From NCBI GenBank assembly GCA_002299425.1, contig DBNW01000055.1:10949-74948 (forward strand): a stretch of DNA of 64,000 nucleotides, written 5' to 3'. The notes beneath the pieces are model-generated. The model saw only the letters and a program-made list of their open reading frames with translations, did no database searches and was not told where the DNA came from. Below are positions 32,222 through 43,192 of this stretch, piece after piece. Both the position numbers and the translations under genes were made by a program. Every line of letters starts with the position of its first letter. Position 1 is the stretch's first letter. This DNA is from Methylococcaceae bacterium UBA662. GTDB taxonomy: Bacteria; Pseudomonadota; Gammaproteobacteria; Methylococcales; Methylomonadaceae.

Positions 32222-33640
32222 ATGCGCTATTTTCCGATTTTTGTAGACCTTAAAGAACAACCGTGTTTAGTGATCGGTGGCGGTGAAACCGCAGCCCGAA
32301 AAATTAGCCTATTGGCTCAGGCCGGGGCACGCATCACGGTTTTATCGGAACAGTTTGGCAAGCCGGTTTTAGACCTGGCCGAACGCTATGCGCTAACGCT
32401 GACACGCAAAACCTTTACTGAAACCGACATTAGCGCAGGGATGCGCTTGGTCGTCTGCGCTACCGACAACCCCAAAACCAACCAATTGGCTGCGACCAGC
32501 GCAACCAAACGAGGCATACTCGTCAACGTCGTCGACAACCCTGACCTGTGCAGCTTCATATTCCCCGCCATCATCGACCGCTCGCCGATTGTCGCTGCTG
32601 TTTCCTCCGGCGGCGCGGCACCGGTACTGGCCAGGCTACTTCGGGCGAAAATAGAAACGCTAATCCCACCCGCCTACGGTTTGCTCGCGGATTTAGCGCA
32701 AAAGTTCCGCAACCCAGTCAAGCAAGCCATTGCAGAACCCGCGCAACGGCGCATTTTTTGGGAAAACTGCTTTCAAGGCCCGGTTGCTGAACGGTTATTT
32801 GCCGGTGACGGACGGCAGGCAGAACACCTGTTGCAGAAGGCTTTAGCCCATCAAGCACCGCAAAACTCCGGTGAAGTTTATCTAATCGGTGCCGGCCCAG
32901 GCGCAGCCGATCTTTTAACCTTCCGTGCCTTGCGCCTGATGCAGCAAGCGGATGTGATAGTGTACGACCACTTAGTGTCGCCAGAAATCATGTCTCTAGC
33001 GCGGCGCGACTCAGACCGGGTTTATGTTGGCAAACAACGAAAAAACCATGCCTTGCCCCAGGATGGCATTAACCAATTGCTGGCGGATTTGGCCAAACAA
33101 GGCAAACGGGTGGCGCGTCTAAAAGGCGGCGACCCGTTTATTTTTGGCCGTGGCGGCGAGGAAATAGAAACTTTGATGGCACAGGGCATCCCTTTTCAAG
33201 TAGTACCCGGTATTACTGCTGCCTCTGGTTGCGCCAGTTACGCCGGCATTCCGCTCACCCACCGTGACCACGCCCACTCTGTTACCTTCGTCACCGGCCA
33301 CTTAAAAGACGGCAGCATCAATCTAAATTGGACACAATTGGCCGCGCCCAACCAAACACTTGTCGTTTACATGGGGCTGGTGGGTCTCGATAAAATCTGC
33401 CAAGCCTTGATTGCACACGGCAGCCCCCAAAATTTGCCCATCGCCTTAATCCAACAAGGCACCACGACGAACCAGCGGGTGGTAACTGGCACTTTAGCTA
33501 GCCTACCCGCCTTAATCGATGGCCTTGACATTACCCCGCCGACCTTGATCATCATCGGCACGGTGGTGAAATTGCATGAAAAACTACAGTGGTTTTATAG
33601 CAACAACCCTAACGTCCATCTAACCAGCCCGCCCCAATGA
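32222..33640 (+). CDS. cysG: Siroheme synthase CysG (dehydrogenase/ferrochelatase plus methyltransferase)
   Basis: VIGGGETAARK, VNVVDNP, GAGPGAADLLT, RLKGGDPFIFGRGGEE. Confidence 0.96.
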   Translation: MRYFPIFVDLKEQPCLVIGGGETAARKISLLAQAGARITVLSEQFGKPVLDLAERYALTLTRKTFTETDISAGMRLVVCATDNPKTNQLAATSATKRGILVNVVDNPDLCSFIFPAIIDRSPIVAAVSSGGAAPVLARLLRAKIETLIPPAYGLLADLAQKFRNPVKQAIAEPAQRRIFWENCFQGPVAERLFAGDGRQAEHLLQKALAHQAPQNSGEVYLIGAGPGAADLLTFRALRLMQQADVIVYDHLVSPEIMSLARRDSDRVYVGKQRKNHALPQDGINQLLADLAKQGKRVARLKGGDPFIFGRGGEEIETLMAQGIPFQVVPGITAASGCASYAGIPLTHRDHAHSVTFVTGHLKDGSINLNWTQLAAPNQTLVVYMGLVGLDKICQALIAHGSPQNLPIALIQQGTTTNQRVVTGTLASLPALIDGLDITPPTLIIIGTVVKLHEKLQWFYSNNPNVHLTSPPQ

Positions 33641-34431
33641 AAATCAACCACTTAGCTTTAGGTGTCATGGCGCTAAGTCTCCTGGTAACTGCCATTGAAC
33701 CCGCAGGGGCCGCCAGTTTTGATTGCGCTAAAGCAGAAACCGCCGTTGAAAAAGCTATTTGCGCGGACACAGAACTTTCATTATTGGATGAACGCCTCGC
33801 CAAAACGTATCAACAGGCTGTTCACTTAGCCGAAGATCCGGTGCCACTCAAAAAACAGCAACACGTCTGGCTCTTGGAAACCCGGAGCACATGCCAGGAT
33901 AACGCCTGCCTGCATCAGGCTCTTCAGACAAGAATTGCCGAACTGGCCGATGTCCAAGCCCGGCAATGGTCCCAGTACCGCGATCTGGAACTGGGCATTG
34001 AGTTTGCCTACCCCCCGCAGCGCCACGTCAGAAAAAATTGCCACAGCAGCCACCACTGCGTCGCCTTGGTATCGACCCCAATGCCGGCTGGCAGCGAATA
34101 CCTGCTGGCCTTTGAAGTTTTTGACGGTGATTTAGCCCATGTGGCGACCAATCAAGCTATTTTTTCCCGGCATAGCGGCGGCTGGGTGGCCCAGGGCCGC
34201 CACGGCCAATACCCGGTGCAGTTTCTATCCGGCGAGGGTTGGCAGGGGATTTACGCGGTGGTCGATTGTGGCGTTACCAGCGCCGAGGGGGTTTTTCATG
34301 CCGCCGGCGGTGAATGTTACTGGGCGGTGCTCAGCAACGGCCTGCGTTCTGTAACCATTGACAGCGAGGGGTTAGTCGGCAACGACGAACTGTCCCGCCG
34401 CTCGATCGAATCCTTCCGCTTCATCCAATAA
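33637..34431 (+). CDS. Exported LprI/DUF1311-family protein with additional C-terminal domain
   Basis: Signal peptide, ASFDCAKA..VEKAIC, QHVWL..R..C....CL; ATGA overlap with cysG. Confidence 0.75.
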   Translation: MKINHLALGVMALSLLVTAIEPAGAASFDCAKAETAVEKAICADTELSLLDERLAKTYQQAVHLAEDPVPLKKQQHVWLLETRSTCQDNACLHQALQTRIAELADVQARQWSQYRDLELGIEFAYPPQRHVRKNCHSSHHCVALVSTPMPAGSEYLLAFEVFDGDLAHVATNQAIFSRHSGGWVAQGRHGQYPVQFLSGEGWQGIYAVVDCGVTSAEGVFHAAGGECYWAVLSNGLRSVTIDSEGLVGNDELSRRSIESFRFIQ

Positions 34432-34602: not shown

Positions 34603-34941
34603 ATGAAAAAATCAGTAGTAGTGGCAGCGACTATCGCATTGTCCGGCTTATTCGGCCAAGCACTGGCCGACGAGCAATTGGAAATAGGCAAAAAAATCTA
34701 CGAACGCGCTTTTGGCCGTGGCTGCGGCACTTGCCACGACATCGCCTCCAACCCGCAATTGACGGCACTCATCAAAGGCGGCCAATTAGACCGCGCCCGC
34801 TTTGAACAAGTCTTAAGAGAAGGCAAAGGCGGCATGCCCAAAGCGGTTGGCGAAATTATGAAGCAAAAAGCGGTGGAAAAAGCCGGTTACAGCGAAGAAC
34901 AAGCCATTGAAGCGTTATACAAGTATTTAGAAAGCAAGTAA
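34603..34941 (+). CDS. Periplasmic class I monoheme cytochrome c
   Basis: Signal peptide ending ALA, CGTCH heme motif, distal Met in GKGGMP. Confidence 0.92.
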   Translation: MKKSVVVAATIALSGLFGQALADEQLEIGKKIYERAFGRGCGTCHDIASNPQLTALIKGGQLDRARFEQVLREGKGGMPKAVGEIMKQKAVEKAGYSEEQAIEALYKYLESK

Positions 34942-35672: not shown

Positions 35673-36908
35673 TCAACCGTGCGCCCCTTTTTGTTTTTTT
35701 GCGGCCGCTATACGCAGCCTCAACGCATTCAGCTTGATGAAGCCCTCCGCGTCTTTCTGGTTGTATGCGCCGGCATCCTCCTCGAAAGTAGCGATGCTCT
35801 CATCGAACAAGCTGTCGGTGTCAGAAGCGCGACCGACCACCATGACGTTGCCCTTGTACAACTTCAGGCGTACTTTGCCATTAACCGTAGATTGAGAAGC
35901 ATCGATCAAAGTCTGCATCAGCTTGCGCTCAGGACTCCACCAGTAGCCGTTATAAATCAACGACGCATAACGCGGCATCAAGTCATCTTTCAAATGCGCC
36001 ACTTCCCGGTCCAAAGTCAACGATTCGATGGCTCGGTGCGCCTTCAACATCACCGTACCCGCCGGCGTTTCATAACAACCGCGCGATTTCATGCCCACAT
36101 AACGGTTTTCAACAATGTCCAGGCGACCGATGCCGTTGGCACCAGCGGTAGCATTCAATTTTTCCATCACTTCAGCCGGGCTGTGCGGGACGCCGTCAAT
36201 CGCGACAATATCGCCATGCTGGTAGGTCAATTCGACATAGACAGGTCGGTCCGGGGCGGTCTCCGGGGCGACCGACCAACGCCACATATCTTCCTCAGGC
36301 TCAGCCCAAGGGTCTTCCAGCACCCGGCCCTCGTAGGAAATATGCAGCAAATTAGCATCCATCGAATACGGCGAAGCACCGCCTTTTTTCATCTCCACGG
36401 GTATGCTGTGTTTTTCAGCATAGGCCAGCAGCGATTGGCGCGAGGTTAAATTCCATTCCCGCCAAGGGGCAATGATTTTAATGCCAGGGCGCAGGGCATA
36501 GGCCCCTAGCTCAAACCGAACTTGGTCGTTTCCCTTGCCGGTGGCGCCGTGAGCAATGGCATCGGCTTGGGTTTCATTGGCTATATCAATCAAACGCTTG
36601 GCAATCAAGGGACGAGCAATCGAGGTGCCGAGTAAGTATTCGCCCTCATAAACGGCATTGGCGCGGAACATCGGGAAGACAAAATCGCGGGCGAACTCTT
36701 CACGCAAGTCGTCTATGTAAATTTCTTTGATGCCCATTGCCTGGGCCTTGCTGCGGGCAGGCTCGACCTCTTCCCGTTGCCCCAAATCGGCGGTAAACGT
36801 AACCACTTCGCAGGCGTACACATCGTGTAACCACTTGAGAATAACGGAGGTGTCCAAGCCCCCAGAATAAGCCAATACCACTTTGTTAATTTCCGGCACG
36901 GTGGCCAC
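35673..36908 (-). CDS. argG: Argininosuccinate synthase
   Basis: [44 protein letters not shown]. Confidence 0.98.
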
Positions 36909-37011
36909 TCCCTTGAGTTAAAAAGGCCGCAATTGTAACAAAAAATCGCATTTTATTACAGGTTAACCGCTGGCGGCGGCATCAAAAACGGGCACTTTCT
37001 ATAGCCGCCGT

Positions 37012-37905
37012 TCAGACCCGCAACGAGCCACCGACCCCGCCTTTGACATCTACCCAAACATGCTTAAGCCCTAAGCTACGCAACCATTTAGGGCCTTGCC
37101 GCTCTTTGAGCATGGCGATGGTGGAGGCACTGCCGGCCACCACGCAAAAATCCGCGATGACGCTGACGGCGGCTAATTTGGCTACCGGCCAACCGGTTTT
37201 GGGGTTTAAGACATGCCCGTAGCGGGTATTGCCGACTACTATGCAGCGTTCGTAGTCGCCGCTGCTGGCCATCGCTCCGCTGGTTAAGGCAACGGTTTCC
37301 AAGACAGCGTTGCGGCGCGGGTGGCGTATGCCGACCCGCCAGGGACCGCCGTCAGGATGGGGACCGATAATTTTGATATCGCCGCCTAAATTGACCAAGC
37401 CATGCCCGATGCCGGCCTGCAAACACAGCACAGCAGCCCGGTCTGCGGCGTATTCTTTGACCACGCCGCCTAAGTCGATTTCCATGCCAGGCATTGGAAA
37501 GCGCAGAGTGGGTGCTTCCCAAACTACTTTTTCCCAACCAATTTTATCCAGCAATCCGGCAATTTGCTGCAAATCAGGCAATTTCCCCAACTCAAACCGC
37601 CAAGCCTGCCGCAAAATGCCGGAAGTAATGTCAAACAGGCCGCCACTTTGTCGGTAGCAGGTTTGTGCGTAATCGAGCAGGCTTGCCGTTTCCGGGTCCA
37701 CTTCCATGGCACCGCCCGCCGCCGCACAACGGTTGATTTCAGCAAGGTAGCTGTCTTTTCGGTAACGCGAATAACGGGCTTCCAAACGCTGAATGTCGGC
37801 TAGTGCTAACGCCGCTGCCGCTTGGGCTTGGTCGACACGACGGGCGTACAACTGCACCTCGCACGGCGACCCCATTGCCTTGAATGCAGTGCGGTAAAGC
37901 TTCAT
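37012..37905 (-). CDS. apbE: FAD:protein FMN transferase ApbE
   Basis: FKAMGS, GGLFDIT, IDLGGVVKEYAADRA, NLGGDI, ASSGDYER, HVLNPKTGWP. Start at ATG 37905. Confidence 0.93.
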   Translation of the reverse strand: MKLYRTAFKAMGSPCEVQLYARRVDQAQAAAALALADIQRLEARYSRYRKDSYLAEINRCAAAGGAMEVDPETASLLDYAQTCYRQSGGLFDITSGILRQAWRFELGKLPDLQQIAGLLDKIGWEKVVWEAPTLRFPMPGMEIDLGGVVKEYAADRAAVLCLQAGIGHGLVNLGGDIKIIGPHPDGGPWRVGIRHPRRNAVLETVALTSGAMASSGDYERCIVVGNTRYGHVLNPKTGWPVAKLAAVSVIADFCVVAGSASTIAMLKERQGPKWLRSLGLKHVWVDVKGGVGGSLRV

Positions 37906-37912
37906 TGGCGGC

Positions 37913-40510
37913 TTAAAACATAAGGCCCCAAGTCGCCGACAACGCCCCCACCCGTGCTTGTTGATACCCGTTAACATCATCCATGACCGGCTGCAGCCAT
38001 TCGACACCAAAGCGGTGGCCCTGAAAACTGCCGTTCGGGACGACCGCGCTTAAACCAAAGCCCACGTCCCAATAACGCCCGCCGTAACTGCCCGGAAAAT
38101 CCATTGCGCCGACGCTAGGGTTGGCTCTTGAACCCATATTGACATTGTCGACCAGCCTGCCATCGGCCACGCCCGGAGTCGGGTAGAACTGCCCCTGTAT
38201 TTGCCCCTGGTAGGTAAACGCCCAGCGCAACGAGGCGGTCAACCAAGACAGTACGTTGTAACCGCCCCAAGCACTGGACTGAAAAGCATTGCCTAAGGCA
38301 TAGCCTGATTCGTTGCTGCTTTCCATGCGCACGGTGCCGTTCATTTGCGCTCCCCACGACCACGTCCCATCCACACCGGTGTAGGTCAGGCTGGGCTTAA
38401 AATCCCAGGTGCCGCTGCCCAACTGCATACCGTAGTGGATAAGCCCCTTGTCTATGCGATGGATGCGCCGCAGCGTTTCGTCCACCGACCCGGTCGGGGC
38501 GGTCACGCCCAAACTCAGGTTAGCGTTGTGGTTGGCAGAACTAAATAGCCGAAACAAGGCGTACATCCCCAAATCGCCGACTCCGCCGGTTTCATGAATG
38601 TGCAGGTGGTCTTTCATGGCGTTGTACCTGACACCGTCCAGCATTCGCACATTCATGTCCATGTCCATGAATTGTGGCATGAGCATGAGATTTAACCAGT
38701 CATACGGGGCATACATCAAATCAAGCATGTGCATGCCCATGTTCATTTCAATAGGGTTAACCCGGCACCTGCCGGTGAACCCGGCTGTACAGCCGTTTCG
38801 GACGATGTCTGCATCGCTGGCATAAGCGGTTCCGCGCAACATGTCCCCCGCCTGCCGGCTCCACATGTAGCGGTAGCCCACCATCGTCTGACCGGCCGGA
38901 ATCAGGTGACTAAACATGACCCCAGCCGGTGCCGGTGCGCCGTGATGATGATGGTGGGCATGTGCTTGACCGCCGTCGGCTAACGCCCGACCTAAGGTAG
39001 ATAAATTGACTTTTAAGTTGGCGTTGGCGACAAAAAAATCAAAATCGGCAAAACTGTTCTCGCCCTCCCCGTCTAGGCGCAACGAACCTTGGTGGGTGTA
39101 GTATTCAAACCCGGCTTCCAAGGCCAGACCCTTAGCGATGCGTTTATTGACCACTATACCGCCACTTAAGGCACCGTACGCCGACAGCCGGTGGTCACTG
39201 GAAAAATTATCCGGAAGCTTGTCCCGGTCAAACGGGGTAATGCTAATTTCACCGCTGTCCGGGTCAAAATCAAGCCGGTTGTGCGCCTGTTTGGAAAGCA
39301 GGAACGGTTTGTAAAAATCAGCGGCAGACTGCGAGTAATAGCGAAACCTAGGCGTGACCGTCCAGGTGGTTGCGACCGGCTGAATCCACTCCAACCTAAA
39401 CGTGTGCGCATGGATATCCCAGTCGTCCTGAAAAAACTGGTAATTGGCATGCAGTGCAGCATCTAACAGGCCGATGTGCTGGACATAGCCTGCACCTACC
39501 TGCCATTGGTTTCTGTGGTCAGGGCGTTGCTCCAAAAACGCCCTAACATCGCCCACTAAGCCGTCGGGATTGCTTGGGTTTATGACCAGCGGATCCGGGT
39601 CGGCAAAAATGATGGTCATGGCCTTGTAGGGGTTTTCCAGGTAGCCCTGGCTGTGGGTGTAGCCTAAGCTTGCCGTAGCCAATGCGCTTTTAGTGATAAT
39701 TTGAGTCAGACCCAGGTTCCAAGAGGCATCGCTCCTGCCACCACGGATGGTTTCCTTGCTCAAGGTTCTGCTGATTTGGTGCTGGAAAGCCACCTTGTCG
39801 ATATAGGTAGCGGCATCGTGGTCAAAGTTGGCTTGAATGTCGCTGCCCGTGTAGCTAAAACCCATGTTCAGGCTGGTCAGTTTTTGGTTGAAATCCAAGC
39901 GCCCGTTAAGACTGCTGAACCAACTGAAATAATCGTCTTCGACTGAACCCCCAAACCCCCAATTGACTGCCGACTCGTCCCATTCATAACCCAAATTGAT
40001 GTCGCCTTGACGGCGAATTTCTGGCGATGCCATGGACATAACATGCACTGCGGCCGGGTCTACGCCCGCTGCTCTCCCGGTACTTGGGTCTTGAGACAAT
40101 AAATTGAAATCTCGGTCCAAGAACACCCGGCTACTGATAAAAGGCGAGGCTCCGGCGATGACGGTCTCACCGTCTCGGCTGGCTACGATGGGGCGGTTGC
40201 TGTTGGCTACCACCGGTGCCGTAGTGATGGGCGTAGCCCCTGACCAAGTGTCTTGGGTGTAGTTAAAAATGAATTTAATTCGGTCCGTCAAACTCACTCG
40301 ACCAAACCCGTAGAGGCTCTCTACTTCGATGGGCTTAAGATTGCTTTCTACGCCCGCCAAATTACGTCGGCCTTCTTGGTAATGCGAAAACTGGAAAGCC
40401 ACTTCGTCTTCTTCGGCTGCGGCATTCCCGGCTGACATCAAACCCGGCAAAGCCAAAGCCGCCAACGTCAGTGCTTTAAGTGCCGATTTTTGGCTATCAG
40501 TAGCAGCCAC
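37913..40510 (-). CDS. Outer-membrane fusion protein: DUF3570-like barrel with flavinylation motif plus His/Met-rich porin-like barrel
   Basis: GTG 40510 start, signal peptide LTLAALALPGL...AAA, DTWSGAT, GYLENPYK, ERPD.R, RYYSQSAADFY, SSDHRLS; then HAHHHHH, PAGVM..H, MVGYRYM, QLGSGTWD; C-terminal F. Confidence 0.8.
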   Translation of the reverse strand: MAATDSQKSALKALTLAALALPGLMSAGNAAAEEDEVAFQFSHYQEGRRNLAGVESNLKPIEVESLYGFGRVSLTDRIKFIFNYTQDTWSGATPITTAPVVANSNRPIVASRDGETVIAGASPFISSRVFLDRDFNLLSQDPSTGRAAGVDPAAVHVMSMASPEIRRQGDINLGYEWDESAVNWGFGGSVEDDYFSWFSSLNGRLDFNQKLTSLNMGFSYTGSDIQANFDHDAATYIDKVAFQHQISRTLSKETIRGGRSDASWNLGLTQIITKSALATASLGYTHSQGYLENPYKAMTIIFADPDPLVINPSNPDGLVGDVRAFLEQRPDHRNQWQVGAGYVQHIGLLDAALHANYQFFQDDWDIHAHTFRLEWIQPVATTWTVTPRFRYYSQSAADFYKPFLLSKQAHNRLDFDPDSGEISITPFDRDKLPDNFSSDHRLSAYGALSGGIVVNKRIAKGLALEAGFEYYTHQGSLRLDGEGENSFADFDFFVANANLKVNLSTLGRALADGGQAHAHHHHHGAPAPAGVMFSHLIPAGQTMVGYRYMWSRQAGDMLRGTAYASDADIVRNGCTAGFTGRCRVNPIEMNMGMHMLDLMYAPYDWLNLMLMPQFMDMDMNVRMLDGVRYNAMKDHLHIHETGGVGDLGMYALFRLFSSANHNANLSLGVTAPTGSVDETLRRIHRIDKGLIHYGMQLGSGTWDFKPSLTYTGVDGTWSWGAQMNGTVRMESSNESGYALGNAFQSSAWGGYNVLSWLTASLRWAFTYQGQIQGQFYPTPGVADGRLVDNVNMGSRANPSVGAMDFPGSYGGRYWDVGFGLSAVVPNGSFQGHRFGVEWLQPVMDDVNGYQQARVGALSATWGLMF

Positions 40511-40718
40511 AGCCCCCCCCCATCCCGGCCATACCCGCAGGGGCGGCTTCACGGCTGCTGTAGTTGTGGTTCCGCATCACGGCATCGATTGGATTAGGGT
40601 TTAATGCCATATGCGGCTTGGCCAAGACTCCCCGCTGCCAAGGGGCTACCGGCGTACAAGCCGCAGCCGCCAAAACCAGCCCGCTTAAAACCCCGTATTT
40701 TACAATCTGCATCGCCAT
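40497..40718 (-). CDS. DUF4266-family lipoprotein
   Basis: Lipobox AAAC, VAPWQRG.LA...M, terminal GGGCGCY; overlaps the start of the barrel gene. Confidence 0.88.
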   Translation of the reverse strand: MAMQIVKYGVLSGLVLAAAACTPVAPWQRGVLAKPHMALNPNPIDAVMRNHNYSSREAAPAGMAGMGGGCGCY

Positions 40719-40750
40719 TACCCTCTTAACTTTACCCGTATTGCCCAAGT

Positions 40751-41251
40751 TTAAGGTTCGGTTAACAACTGCACCAGCACACGATCCAGTTGTTCGATTG
40801 CATCCGATTTAAAGCCCAGATGGATGTGTCGGACGGCTCCGTGGCGGTCAATCAGGTAGGACGAGGGCATGGCCTTAACCGCGAAAGCTTCGGCGCACTG
40901 CTGGTTCTTGTCGGCTACCACGGTGAATTGCGGTGGGAATTGGACCAGGAACGCTTTAGCATCAGCCACTGTTTCATCTACATTGACACCAATAATTTTC
41001 AGGCCTTTCGCTTGATATTTTGCGTGCAACGTATTTAAGAAAGGAAACGACTTAGCGCACGGGGCACACCAGGATGCCCAAAAATCCACATACAAAACCT
41101 GCCCCTGAAACTGCCGCAGCGGCACAGGCTGGCCACCTGACAGGGGCGTTAAGTAACAGTCAGGGAATGGCTCGCCCTGCTCCAGCCCATAAGCCGCCGA
41201 CACGCTCGACAAGCAACCCCAAAAAAGCAGTTTAACGATGTTGCTATTCAT
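40751..41251 (-). CDS. TlpA/ResA-like exported thioredoxin
   Basis: Signal-like N-terminus, VDFWASWCAPC, MPSSYLIDR..VR..H.GF. Confidence 0.92.
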   Translation of the reverse strand: MNSNIVKLLFWGCLSSVSAAYGLEQGEPFPDCYLTPLSGGQPVPLRQFQGQVLYVDFWASWCAPCAKSFPFLNTLHAKYQAKGLKIIGVNVDETVADAKAFLVQFPPQFTVVADKNQQCAEAFAVKAMPSSYLIDRHGAVRHIHLGFKSDAIEQLDRVLVQLLTEP

Positions 41252-41265
41252 TAGCGTTACGTTTT

Positions 41266-41295
41266 AAGAAAGCAGCACCGAAACAAACGTGTTGC
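41266..41295 (-). terminator. Candidate intra-operon terminator/attenuator
   Basis: Minus strand GCAACAC-N10-GTGCTGC followed by TTTCTT, just upstream of the tlpA start. Confidence 0.45.
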
Positions 41296-41437
41296 AGATG
41301 AGCAACGCGATGCGCTTGAAGAATAAAAACCCTGATTGCCGAGGCCGATGTTAAGAAACAATGGTTCTGTATTACAGGATGGTAAGAAAAACAGCTTAAT
41401 TGACTTTCCTTAATCCGCAGACCGACAGTTGATAGCT

Positions 41438-41881
41438 CTACCTGTCTTGCACGACTAAGGTGCGTACACCCGTATGCCTACCGCTTCTGCCGGTGCAATG
41501 GTACTCTAAATCGTAGTCGTCTGCGGCGCCCCTGCTTTTGTTGACCAACACCAAGTACACGCCATCACCCCCCCTAATTTCAATGGTTGGGCTGTACCGG
41601 GTATCGCCCTCAGGACCGTTGTCGGTTGCATTGTAGGCCAACCGTCCTTTGACCGTCTGTACGCTCAATATGGAACCCGAACTGACGTTGCGCCCATCTC
41701 TAACCCGCATTGACATGTGATCGGTTGCCCCGTTGCCGTTGTCGAAACACTCGATCCGGTAATGATCGACATTTGTCGAACCTTGACCTAGCACACCTGA
41801 AAGCTCATCGGCAGCTACTGTACCGGCTACTGCATACAGTGCTGCGGTTAGCAATGCGTGTATTTTGGTTTGTTTTAGCAT
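41438..41881 (-). CDS. Secreted hypothetical protein with two Cys and four mature-domain His
   Basis: GAGGA RBS; signal peptide ending VAA; YRIECFD, YHCTG, RHTG. Confidence 0.82.
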   Translation of the reverse strand: MLKQTKIHALLTAALYAVAGTVAADELSGVLGQGSTNVDHYRIECFDNGNGATDHMSMRVRDGRNVSSGSILSVQTVKGRLAYNATDNGPEGDTRYSPTIEIRGGDGVYLVLVNKSRGAADDYDLEYHCTGRSGRHTGVRTLVVQDR

Positions 41882-41932
41882 GGATTATTCCTCAAATTTT
41901 GGTTTGTTTCGTCTTTTTCCCACATGCCCGCA

Positions 41933-41949
41933 AGCAATTAACACACCAA
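41933..41949 (-). promoter_or_regulatory. Candidate sigma54 (-24/-12) promoter
   Basis: Minus strand TTGG-TGTGTTAATT-GCT: GG and GC separated by the canonical 10 nt, with TTGC at -12; about 50 nt upstream of ATG 41881. Confidence 0.65.
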
Positions 41950-41975
41950 ACACTAACTTAAAAAATATTCTTTTA

Positions 41976-41988
41976 AATCAACGTGTTT
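41976..41988 (+). promoter_or_regulatory. IHF-like binding site
   Basis: AATCAACGTGTTT against WATCAANNNNTTR (1 mismatch) in an AT-rich tract upstream of the -24 box. Confidence 0.45.
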
Positions 41989-42119
41989 TTCCAGACAGCG
42001 GCATTGGTTAGGCTGATTTTTTTAAACGGTTTTGTTTTATCCGGCTAAAACAAGTGATTTGCCTCAAATAAAGGCCGCAAAAACTCATTAAAAGCCTATT
42101 TTTCAACGATATAAAATAC

Positions 42120-42133
42120 GAGTCAAATGACTC
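42120..42133. promoter_or_regulatory. Palindromic candidate enhancer (bEBP binding site)
   Basis: GAGTCA-AA-TGACTC perfect inverted repeat about 175 nt upstream of the -24 box. Confidence 0.45.
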
Positions 42134-42230
42134 ACAACTGCGCGATATGACGCTCATCTTGCCGTCGGCACGCTTTTTAAGGCCGCATTGGCACTGCCTA
42201 CGAATCACCCCTAACCCCTAACCTGCCCCG

Positions 42231-42262
42231 AAAAACGAGGCGGCGACTAACGCGCCGTTTTT
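42231..42262 (-). terminator. Candidate terminator after miaA
   Basis: AAAAACGAGGCG...CGCCGTTTTT bulged stem; the A-run gives a U-tract on the minus strand. Confidence 0.45.
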
Positions 42263-43192
42263 TTAAGACAGCTCGGTCAGCAAGCGGGCCAGCAGACCGT
42301 TGTCTTCAGCGGCCAGCCACACTGCATTCGTTTCTTTGCGTAACCAAGTAAATTGCCGTTTTGCCAGTTGCCGGGTAGCGGCAATGGCTTTTTCTGTCAT
42401 GGTTGCATAATCGCAGTCACCGTCCAAATACGCCCATGCGTGCCGGTAGCCCACGGCCTTCATCGCCGGCAAATCCGGCGTTAAATCGCCACGCCCATGC
42501 AGACCGGCCACCTCCTCAAGCAAGCCTTTAGCCAGCATGGCATGGAACCGTCTAGCAATCAGGTCGTGCAAGGTTTTGCGTTCCGTAGGGGCAAGGATGA
42601 ATTTAATAGGTCGATAGGGGAAATCGCTTGCCTGATCTAAAAAATAGGCACTAATCGGCTTACCGCTAATTTCATAGACTTCCAACGCCCGTTGCAGGCG
42701 TTGCGGGTCGTTAGGGTGAATACGGGCAGCGGCTTGTGGATCGACGCTGGCCAGGCGCCGGTGCAACAGTTCACAGCCAAATTCAGACAGTTCTTTGTGC
42801 AAACGCGCCCTAATTTTAAAATCGGCCTCCGGTAAAACCGCCAAACCGTTGCATAACGCCCTGAAATACAACCCTGTACCGCCCACAAGAACAGGAATTT
42901 TTCCGCGCCGGGTGATGCTTGCCATCAGCCCCAAGGCAGATGCCCTGAACTGACCGGTGGAAAAACTGGCCGACGGGTCGAGGATGTCCATTAAATGATG
43001 CTGAATTCCGCCACGCTCCTCGAGGGTTGGCTTAGCTGTGCCAATGTCCATGCCTTTGAACACCAGCGCGGAATCAACACTGATAATTTCAGTGTCTAGG
43101 GCCTGCGCCAATTGCACGGCCAAAGCCGTTTTGCCGGAGGCGGTTGGTCCCATCAGAAAAATCGCCGTTGGCAAAGAGGATGGTTGCATCAT
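42263..43192 (-). CDS. miaA: tRNA dimethylallyltransferase
   Basis: MGPTASGKT, IISVDS, DIGTAKP, VGGTGLY, QRLQRALEV, TRQLAKRQFTW. Start at 43192 overlaps the mutL stop. Confidence 0.97.
   Translation of the reverse strand: MMQPSSLPTAIFLMGPTASGKTALAVQLAQALDTEIISVDSALVFKGMDIGTAKPTLEERGGIQHHLMDILDPSASFSTGQFRASALGLMASITRRGKIPVLVGGTGLYFRALCNGLAVLPEADFKIRARLHKELSEFGCELLHRRLASVDPQAAARIHPNDPQRLQRALEVYEISGKPISAYFLDQASDFPYRPIKFILAPTERKTLHDLIARRFHAMLAKGLLEEVAGLHGRGDLTPDLPAMKAVGYRHAWAYLDGDCDYATMTEKAIAATRQLAKRQFTWLRKETNAVWLAAEDNGLLARLLTELS

Follow-up and report, generated by a model that had tools for sequence, protein, structure and literature searches.

We analyzed a 64,000-nt stretch of the genome of Methylococcaceae bacterium UBA662 (assembly GCA_002299425.1, contig DBNW01000055.1, positions 10,949 to 74,948 of the forward strand), hereafter the window, and within it a cluster of five genes encoding a small exported protein, a thioredoxin, a DUF4266 lipoprotein, a DUF3570 barrel fused to a second, methionine-rich barrel, and the flavin transferase ApbE. 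We read this locus, with a probability of roughly 45%, as a copper-handling variant of the DsbD/thioredoxin/DUF4266/DUF3570/ApbE envelope redox system, and within this reading copper uptake is favored over export. The comparative evidence, namely the enrichment of the fused barrel in genomes with pmoA/amoA and the presence of DUF2946-like and copper-storage (Csp) genes near related barrels, favors a link to copper. The features of the cluster, with their positions in the window, are listed below.

41881..41438, minus strand: open reading frame (ORF) of a 147-aa exported protein (sec147 family) with a Sec signal peptide and a predicted beta-sandwich fold; C45 and C129 invariant, H128 and H136 present, Asp25 in place of the N-terminal His (AlphaFold2 (AF2) model, 81-member alignment)
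41251..40751, minus strand: ORF of a periplasmic TlpA/ResA-like thioredoxin, 166 aa, with a signal peptide and a WCAPC active site (Redoxin 2.4e-25, AhpC-TSA 4.9e-21)
40748..40497, minus strand: ORF of a small DUF4266 lipoprotein, 83 aa, with lipobox ...LAAAAC and a Gly-rich tail ending GGGCGCY (PF14086 2e-18)
40552..37913 as longest ORF, minus strand: fused DUF3570 protein, 879 aa, with the following parts
39005..40510, minus strand: signal peptide and first barrel, DUF3570, ~16 strands, residues about 46-516 (PF12094 1.8e-110 over residues 26-507, AF2 strand map, invariant residues of 68 homologues)
40232..40252, minus strand: flavinylation motif DTWSGAT, residues 101-107, with Thr107 as predicted acceptor of flavin mononucleotide (FMN) (invariance in 68 sequences)
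Residues 133-137 (xGASP) and 174-178 (xxASPE), minus strand: conserved look-alikes of the flavin motif (68-sequence alignment)
38888..39004, minus strand: disordered His-rich linker (QAHAHHHHHG, 18% His; pLDDT <50 for residues 524-535) and a conserved APAGVMxxH segment ahead of strand 1 of barrel 2
37913..38887, minus strand: second barrel, COG4313/PF13557-like, 12 strands, with a C-x7-C loop (C588, C596), Met-rich strands, and a terminal Phe (Foldseek, Met content, homologue annotation)
38642..38746, minus strand: Met ladder on strands 2 and 3 of barrel 2 (EMNMGMHMLDLM ... LMLMPQFMDMDMNVRM), from 68 fused proteins
38010..37012 as longest ORF (332 aa), minus strand: ApbE; the protein itself, 37012..37905, is an ApbE-family FMN transferase that has no signal peptide and starts MKLYRTAFKAMGSPC (PF02424 2.7e-73, residues 46-313 of the long ORF)

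All five ORFs are intact and co-directional. An earlier reading of the sequence (the original prediction) had described five tightly linked genes; spacing is indeed tight from the thioredoxin gene to apbE, but the 147-aa gene stands apart, 186 nt upstream of the thioredoxin gene. Its five genes, their motifs, and the second barrel were all recovered, but not a sigma54-like promoter that it had placed in front of them. Upstream of the 147-aa gene, at a distance of 380 nt, is miaA, with a terminator-like hairpin after it; argG, miaA, and mutL flank the cluster. Judging from the sequence, the barrel gene probably starts at GTG 40510 and overlaps the end of the DUF4266 gene; this start gives the barrel a normal signal peptide (...KALTLAALALPGLMSAGNAAA/EED). 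The true start of the DUF4266 gene is probably the ATG near 40717, and apbE starts at ATG 37905, 7 nt past the barrel stop codon. A scan of positions 36800-42400 against Rfam matched zero families. The host genome is a 2.4-Mb metagenome-assembled genome (MAG) of 87 contigs from an aquatic sample. It contains pmoA/amoA, and the closest related locus is found in a Methylococcaceae MAG, which identifies the organism as a gammaproteobacterial methanotroph.

The fused barrel and its redox partners

Residue invariance was scored over 68 full-length fused homologues, and the same proteins were used to build the AF2 model. The DTWSGAT motif that the original prediction had noticed in a two-barrel outer-membrane protein is conserved throughout: D101, W103, G105, A106, T107, and P108 (DTWSGATP) are invariant, as are G134, P137, and A175-S176-P177-E178 at the two look-alike sites. 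The second [S/T]GA[S/T]-type site reads AGAS in the window (family consensus xGASP) and deviates at its first position. Further along the protein, the invariant residues are P542, A543, G544, and H549 in the APAGVMxxH segment, both cysteines of the C-x7-C loop (C588 and C596), and the seven methionines M605, M607, M609, M613, M623, M625, and M633, with H608 nearly so. The translation reads HAHHHHH in the linker and ends ...WGLMF. Methionine makes up 7.1% of barrel 2 (10.3% of its first half) and 0.8% of barrel 1, against a background of 2.1% in the long ORFs of this genome (99th percentile 4.6%).

The AF2 model has a mean pLDDT of 85.2 and a pTM of 0.82, and it contains two all-beta domains with the disordered His-rich linker between them. 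In domain 1, the succession of strands, with short turns on one side, is as expected of a barrel with ~16 strands, and domain 2 (residues 556-878) has ~12 strands as assigned by DSSP. Searched with Foldseek, the whole model comes closest to the COG4313 channel Pput2725 (4rl8), with a TM-score of 0.70 on the target. Together with the methionine content, the model and this match indicate that the His/Met-rich second barrel of the original prediction is real. Because short turns are usually periplasmic, the strand order of the model would place T107, S136, and S176 at or near the long strand 3-4 loop; within barrel 1, they would sit in the outer half or the lumen.

Pfam applied to the second barrel alone returned a sub-threshold OmpA_membrane match and no match to PF13557, and PF05275 (PcoB/CopB) gave no match to it at E values up to 10. 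Homologues of barrel 2 at 45-60% identity carry precomputed PF13557 annotation, and a stand-alone homologue that is 35% identical scores 41 bits against a PF13557 cut-off of 22. Foldseek matches to MtrB, OprC, and TonB-dependent receptors were rejected as generic barrel alignments with a root-mean-square deviation >20 Å, and a search of PDB sequences with the second barrel returned only His-tag artefacts.

The exported CAPC thioredoxin and the DUF4266 lipoprotein ending CGCY were identified correctly in the original prediction; WASWCAPC and GGGCGCY are read in the translations and the Pfam families agree. The thioredoxin additionally matches Thioredoxin_8 (1e-14) and has sub-threshold NCBIfam similarity to the ResA and TlpA models. 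PF13899, the thioredoxin family cited in PMC8238504, is not among its Pfam matches.

All 55 ApbE orthologues in the fused loci start ~10 residues before a conserved AMG[ST]PC, and a stop codon frequently lies just a few codons ahead of the start. We also found leaderless ApbE, with neither signal peptide nor lipobox, in each of the 12 non-fused DUF3570 clusters examined. The second ApbE of the host genome, on contig C55, is a classical lipoprotein (signal ...WLAAC). From its sequence, the DUF3570-cognate ApbE would seem to stay in the cytoplasm, although its substrate is made with a signal peptide and folds as a barrel. The simplest reading is that the unfolded DUF3570 precursor is flavinylated before Sec export, or else ApbE may itself be exported by some other route. 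In the published E. coli co-expression, the construct was made via "a similar cloning strategy" to that of signal-peptide-truncated proteins and the product was found in the pellet (PMC8238504), a result that is compatible with flavinylation before export without proving it.

Distribution, partner proteins, and promoter

A homologue search with barrel 2 yielded 454 proteins, some fused to DUF3570 and others stand-alone, the latter being ~330-400 aa long, with signal peptides and in part with PF13557 annotation. Scanning one genome per species gave 558 relatives, and the locus counts that follow are from the best 79 loci, which belong to Methylobacter, Methylovulum, Methyloglobulus, Methylocucumis, Methylomagnum, Methylomonas, Crenothrix, Nitrosomonas, and a few other MAGs. 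Of the 93 copies of barrel 2 across these loci, 89 share one open frame with DUF3570, so that the fused barrel is conserved. The conserved gene order is X - HEAT-repeat protein - sec147 (1-3 copies) - thioredoxin - DUF4266 - fused barrel - ApbE, where X is a second family of exported proteins, and the families occur as follows.

Fused barrel: 79 of 79 loci (ORF clustering)
DUF4266: 74 of 79 loci (tblastn)
sec147: 64 of 79 loci (ORF clustering)
Thioredoxin: 60 of 79 loci, 60-65 over counts (ORF clustering)
ApbE: 56 of 79 loci (ORF clustering)
X: 55 of 79 loci (ORF clustering)
HEAT-repeat protein: 39 of 79 loci (ORF clustering)

Clustering of all ORFs of the 79 loci gave no conserved family beyond these seven; an enhancer-binding protein, DsbD, and copper pumps or chaperones were among those sought. 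DsbD was found neither in the window locus nor in any of the 79 fused loci; in the host genome a canonical DsbD is encoded on contig C36, and DsbD_TM homologues are present on C36 and C74. The synteny survey that the original prediction had called for thus yields a conserved seven-family module, mostly in Methylococcales and Nitrosomonas. In the closest relative, the same chromosomal site reads mutL-miaA-X-HEAT-sec147-trx-DUF4266-barrel-apbE, whereas the window passes from miaA straight to sec147. Some loci of the Methyloglobulus type (L028, L029, L031, L078, L080) contain three or four tandem pairs of DUF4266 and fused-barrel genes.

We then asked how the family is distributed in an evenly drawn sample of 400 genomes (321 genera) of the same GTDB class, calling the barrel-2 family at E<=1e-20 and the fused form as an open frame >800 aa. 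The barrel-2 family is present in 52 genomes and pmoA/amoA in 14; 9 of the 14 pmoA/amoA-positive genomes carry the family, compared with 43 of the 386 others (Fisher p=6.6e-6). The fused form is present in 7 of the 400 genomes, of which 5 are pmoA/amoA-positive (p=4.9e-7). DUF3570 itself is widespread, with PF12094 matches, many of them partial, in 91 of 401 genomes, and the pmoA/amoA enrichment is therefore specific to the fusion. The sec147 family follows the fusion closely: it was found in 6 of the 400 genomes, which are 6 of the 7 with the fused form and none of the 393 others (p=1.3e-12). Strong X-family matches occur in 5 of the 7 fused genomes, and among 16 genomes with non-fused DUF3570 we found none at a strong score and at most one faint match.

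The 147-aa protein has no Pfam or NCBIfam match, and a single-sequence homologue search found only the protein itself; its family was recovered from the flanks of the related loci. C45 and C129 are invariant in the 81 members. A histidine triad, composed of the first residue after the A-x-A cleavage site (predicted by eye), H128, and H136, is all-or-none: HHH in 71 of 81 and none of the three in 8 of 81, with the N-terminal His in 72 of 81 relatives. Mature X proteins begin with His in all 39 sequences, and the family has a nearby HGC and four invariant Cys. The original prediction had proposed a dedicated secreted Cys/His protein; such a protein is real, conserved, and strictly co-occurring with the fusion, but it has only a Sec signal and here it lacks the N-terminal His. 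As this is its only export signal, the sequence makes the partner more probably periplasmic than secreted. X also has a Sec signal only and is most simply taken to be periplasmic rather than beyond the outer membrane.

The AF2 model of sec147 (pLDDT 88.5) is a jelly-roll beta-sandwich, for which Foldseek found no PDB match at E<=0.001; the best matches are generic jelly-roll and PPC domains, and the fold was rejected as a functional clue. Profile searches of PDB sequences with the sec147 and X families found nothing at E<=10, and Pfam matched neither X nor the sec147 and X paralogues. The seventh family, a ~297-aa HEAT-repeat protein (HEAT_2, 3e-9; N-terminal hydrophobic segment), lies between X and sec147 in 39 of the 79 loci (e.g. 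L010:5150-5974) and is absent from the genome of the window. Paralogues of X and sec147 occur elsewhere in the host genome, on contigs C52 and C74. On C52 (11218-13341), X298 with an N-terminal His is followed by two tandem sec147 paralogues in a partner-only mini-cluster away from barrel genes. On C74 (12718-17932), the order is X295 - thioredoxin - DUF4266 - DUF3570 (416 aa, non-fused) - DsbD (637 aa) - a 300-aa exported protein, with no ApbE.

The many conserved cysteines could also be explained by a thiol oxidase or disulfide module, in which electrons would flow from periplasmic thiols through the CGC tail of DUF4266 and FMN to an external acceptor, as in Erv2, to form or isomerize the disulfides of the partners or to set the redox state of the C-x7-C loop. 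The original prediction had named disulfide handling as an alternative, too. Two invariant Cys in sec147, four in X, two in barrel 2, and the CGC end of DUF4266 all fit this idea. However, it leaves the invariant Met ladder and the restriction to pmoA/amoA-rich clades unexplained, general Dsb systems normally form such disulfides, and TlpA-like proteins are usually reductants; we consider it quite unlikely. A second alternative concerns this genome only, where the locus may be a decaying remnant that no longer functions as in its relatives. X and the HEAT gene are missing compared with the closest relative at the same chromosomal site, and the D-H-H pattern of sec147 is unique among the 81 sequences. 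Against decay, the five genes are intact, every invariant barrel and ApbE residue is retained, and X and sec147 paralogues are available on C52 and C74; an X gene was not seen in 24 of the 79 loci either, some of them on short contigs. Decay seems to us the least probable of the alternatives.

The sigma54-like promoter claimed for the cluster corresponds to the following element.

41933..41948, minus strand: candidate sigma54-like element TGGTGTGTTAATTGCT (TGGTGT-N5-TTGCT; its -24 element has 3 mismatches), at a distance of 51 nt upstream from the 147-aa gene

Compared with the consensus TGGCAC-N5-TTGCW, no site with <=2 mismatches was found upstream of the operon, and the window as a whole contains 41 such matches where 53 are expected by chance. 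Aligned with its counterpart in the closest relative, the intergenic region shows no homology, and the sec147 genes of relatives have good sigma54 sites in 2 of 64 cases, which is background level. The candidate element is weak and probably not significant, and the promoter claim is not supported at this locus. In contrast to sec147, TGGCAY-N5-xTGCT precedes 22 of 41 X genes at a fixed distance of 80-110 nt from the start (e.g. L010:3980-4075), and the host's own X genes have sigma54-type sites 72 nt (X298) and 64 nt (X295; TGGCAC-GTTTC-GTGCT) upstream. Sigma54 control is a feature of the X gene, which is missing at the window locus. No gene for an enhancer-binding protein was found conserved near the X promoters. 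In a Methylobacter-like subgroup (L051, L053, L060, L061, L082), a palindrome AAACTGTGTTA-N2-TAACACAGTTT lies upstream of the sigma54 site of X.

Beyond argG, the plus strand of the window encodes a small exported c-type cytochrome (34603-34941; CGTCH; Cytochrome_CBB3, 2.3e-6) and an exported protein with an LprI domain (33637-34431); no link of either to the cluster was found.

A possible copper route across the outer membrane

In the mechanism that we propose, DsbD encoded elsewhere would keep the periplasmic TlpA-like thioredoxin reduced, and the thioredoxin would in turn reduce the C-terminal Cys-Gly-Cys tail of the outer-membrane lipoprotein DUF4266. The tail would pass electrons to FMN attached by ApbE at Thr107 of the DUF3570 barrel, and possibly also at the two look-alike sites. 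The flavin could then reduce Cu(II) at or in the outer membrane, and Cu(I) would move through the fused 12-stranded barrel with Met, His, and Cys as Cu(I)-type ligands. The small exported His-triad protein, joined by X in the relatives, may bind copper in the periplasm. In this scheme we infer which way electrons flow, that copper is the substrate and is taken up rather than exported, what the partners do, and the link to particulate methane monooxygenase (pMMO). Three precedents make the relay chemistry plausible: the reduction of copper-site cysteines in Sco and CoxB by TlpA-type proteins, the Cys-Gly-Cys tail of Erv2-type flavin thiol oxidases, and the eukaryotic pairing of Fre flavin reductases with Met-lined Ctr1 channels.

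The neighborhoods of stand-alone barrels point in the same direction. These homologues, including distant ones at 31-35% identity, retain the HAPxGVMxDHxH and MxMxMHM motifs. Directly upstream of four of them is a small DUF2946-like ORF; the similarity is weak and sub-threshold (E 0.002-0.06) and covers the whole profile. DUF2946 has been tied to copper uptake operons and copper-dependent regulation (PMC9426467; bioRxiv 10.1101/072470). A Csp gene is found two genes from one stand-alone homologue, and another lies ~2.4 kb from a fused cluster whose genome lacks pmoA/amoA. Other neighbors of the stand-alone barrels are RegB/RegA-like pairs of sensor kinase and response regulator, which adjoin the barrel in 4 of 12 sampled genomes (L090, L098, L100, L103), and a TonB-dependent receptor, which adjoins one homologue. 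At G307:C40:1673-3064, the sequence directly after a stand-alone Met-rich barrel gene matches the X family weakly (8e-8), which suggests that the association of X with the barrel can exist without DUF3570.

The same ligands would also serve copper detoxification, in which the barrel lets Cu(I) out of the periplasm or buffers it at the outer membrane in the manner of PcoB/CopB, and the relay keeps copper or its ligand cysteines reduced. The ligand set would be identical, Csp genes occur near a fused cluster and near a stand-alone homologue, and heavy users of copper also need protection. However, Pfam finds no resemblance of the barrel to CopB/PcoB, the 79 loci have no conserved gene for an efflux pump, a multicopper oxidase, or CopA/CusCBA, and the DUF2946 neighbors are known from copper uptake operons. 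We judge export or buffering unlikely.

The substrate may also be something other than copper: extracellular iron, quinones, or humics that are reduced, or a hydrophobic molecule that enters through the COG4313-type barrel and is acted on by the flavin. Reduction of extracellular iron has been suggested for some DUF3570 clusters, VIT1 iron transporters are present in 25 DUF3570 clusters (PMC8238504), and COG4313 channels bind detergents and have been linked to hydrophobic substrates (PMC4493636). The TonB-dependent receptor next to one stand-alone homologue and the RegB/RegA-like systems next to four are consistent with such a role. Met thioethers, however, are poor iron ligands, no iron gene is conserved in the 79 loci, and neither the copper-related neighbors nor the partners with an N-terminal His point to such substrates. 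We regard this alternative as improbable.

Copper handling, with uptake favored, remains the reading that we prefer, and several observations weigh against it. The link of other COG4313 channels to hydrophobic substrates is one. The five pmoA/amoA-positive fused genomes represent two families only (f1, f41), and hence few independent events, and two fused genomes have no pmoA/amoA. Met/His-rich outer-membrane proteins are also found in copper resistance, and transport may thus run in either direction, and the orientation of the Met ladder in the model is derived from strand order only. With a leaderless ApbE, flavinylation of an exported protein requires an unproven route. The window locus, which is without the X and HEAT genes of its relatives, is a reduced version of the module, and its sec147 is the sole D-H-H among 81 members, with Asp replacing the N-terminal His. 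Finally, sequencing runs searched for the locus contained it in the source metagenome only, and in zero RNA runs.

Beyond the copper-handling role, a more specific model is possible, though on the doubtful side. In this model, DUF3570 would be a flavin wire that spans the outer membrane and is entered from the periplasmic side by the Gly-rich CGC tail of DUF4266. Two or three covalent FMNs on the strand 3-4 loop would carry electrons to the surface for reduction of Cu(II), Cu(I) would pass through the fused Met-lined barrel, and leaderless ApbE would attach the flavin in the cytoplasm, ahead of Sec export of the barrel. If true, the flavin wire would be a bacterial counterpart of reductive copper uptake by Fre/Ctr1 that serves pMMO and ammonia monooxygenase, and ApbE acting before export would be a new route of cofactor attachment for an outer-membrane protein.

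The passage of copper across the outer membrane is poorly understood in methanotrophs without methanobactin and in ammonia oxidizers, and both groups rely on copper monooxygenases, enzymes with a strong influence on the global fluxes of methane and nitrogen. The conserved seven-gene module, with five genes in the window, is a candidate for this step. If the reading is true, it would provide a function for the widespread, unsolved DUF3570/DUF4266/ApbE system and an example of flavin-based, haem-free electron transfer across the outer membrane. In either case, the conserved leaderless cognate ApbE raises the question of where an exported protein gets flavinylated.

Comparison with known systems

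The core of the locus corresponds to the clusters described by Meheust et al. (eLife 2021, PMC8238504), which combine ApbE, DUF3570, a thioredoxin-like protein, and DUF4266, 227 with DsbD and 316 without. In that work, DUF3570 of Chlorobium luteolum was flavinylated by its cognate ApbE in E. coli at two [S/T]GA[S/T] sites, the CXC tail of DUF4266 was described, and DsbD was proposed to feed a hybrid thiol/flavin relay of uncertain function (PMC8238504). The original prediction had called such clusters functionally uncharacterized; the function is indeed unsolved, but flavinylation of DUF3570 by ApbE and the DsbD model were already published. The window shares the four families, their tight arrangement, the [S/T]GA[S/T] motif, and the CXC tail, and its DsbD is encoded elsewhere, as in the 316 clusters. 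Unlike the published system, its DUF3570 is fused to a Met/His-rich barrel of the COG4313 type, the cluster adds a small His-triad protein (with X and the HEAT-repeat protein added in relatives), the thioredoxin is best described as Redoxin/TlpA-like rather than PF13899, and the fused type is concentrated in methane and ammonia oxidizers. The fusion, DUF3570 as an outer-membrane barrel, leaderless ApbE, and copper are not mentioned in PMC8238504. Our literature search on DUF3570/DUF4266, PF13557, and ApbE with copper and methanotroph found no description of the fusion or of a copper role.

Barrel 2 resembles the COG4313/PF13557 channels (Pput2725, 4RL8) in its predicted 12 or so strands, its similar size, and a conserved segment before strand 1; in Pput2725, ~14 residues before strand 1 fold into the lumen (PMC4493636), and APAGVMxxH is their counterpart by position. 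It differs in its Met ladder, conserved His, and C-x7-C loop, which are unmentioned for characterized members, and in being fused to another barrel; known members have been linked to hydrophobic substrates, not metals.

Bacteria have several Met/His-rich copper proteins, among them PcoB/CopB, CusF, and OprC. With these and with Fre/Ctr1 the locus would share the logic of a flavin reductase coupled to a Met-lined Cu(I) pathway, the copper route being marked by Met/His-rich sequence. There is no relationship in sequence or fold to Fre/Ctr1, PcoB/CopB, CusF, or OprC, and the window encodes an outer-membrane barrel that would be fed by thiols, not NADPH.

For the partner proteins, the closest parallel is the histidine brace. 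Copper sites of the histidine-brace type, as in CopC, YcnI, and the lytic polysaccharide monooxygenases, are recognized by an N-terminal His together with further His (PMC10952591, PMC8424229). His is likewise first after the predicted cleavage site in 72 of 81 sec147 and 39 of 39 X sequences, with additional conserved His. The partners are unlike these proteins in having no sequence match to PDB chains, sec147 is a generic jelly-roll, and the window copy has Asp in the first position.

Altogether, the original prediction was right about the known redox system and the fused barrel, and the copper link that it suggested is favored, but the sigma54 promoter is not supported at this locus and the partner is more probably periplasmic than secreted. 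In the literature searched, we found no earlier description of the fusion to a Met-lined COG4313-type barrel, of partners with an N-terminal His, or of the concentration in methane and ammonia oxidizers; these are what the module adds to a core that is already known.

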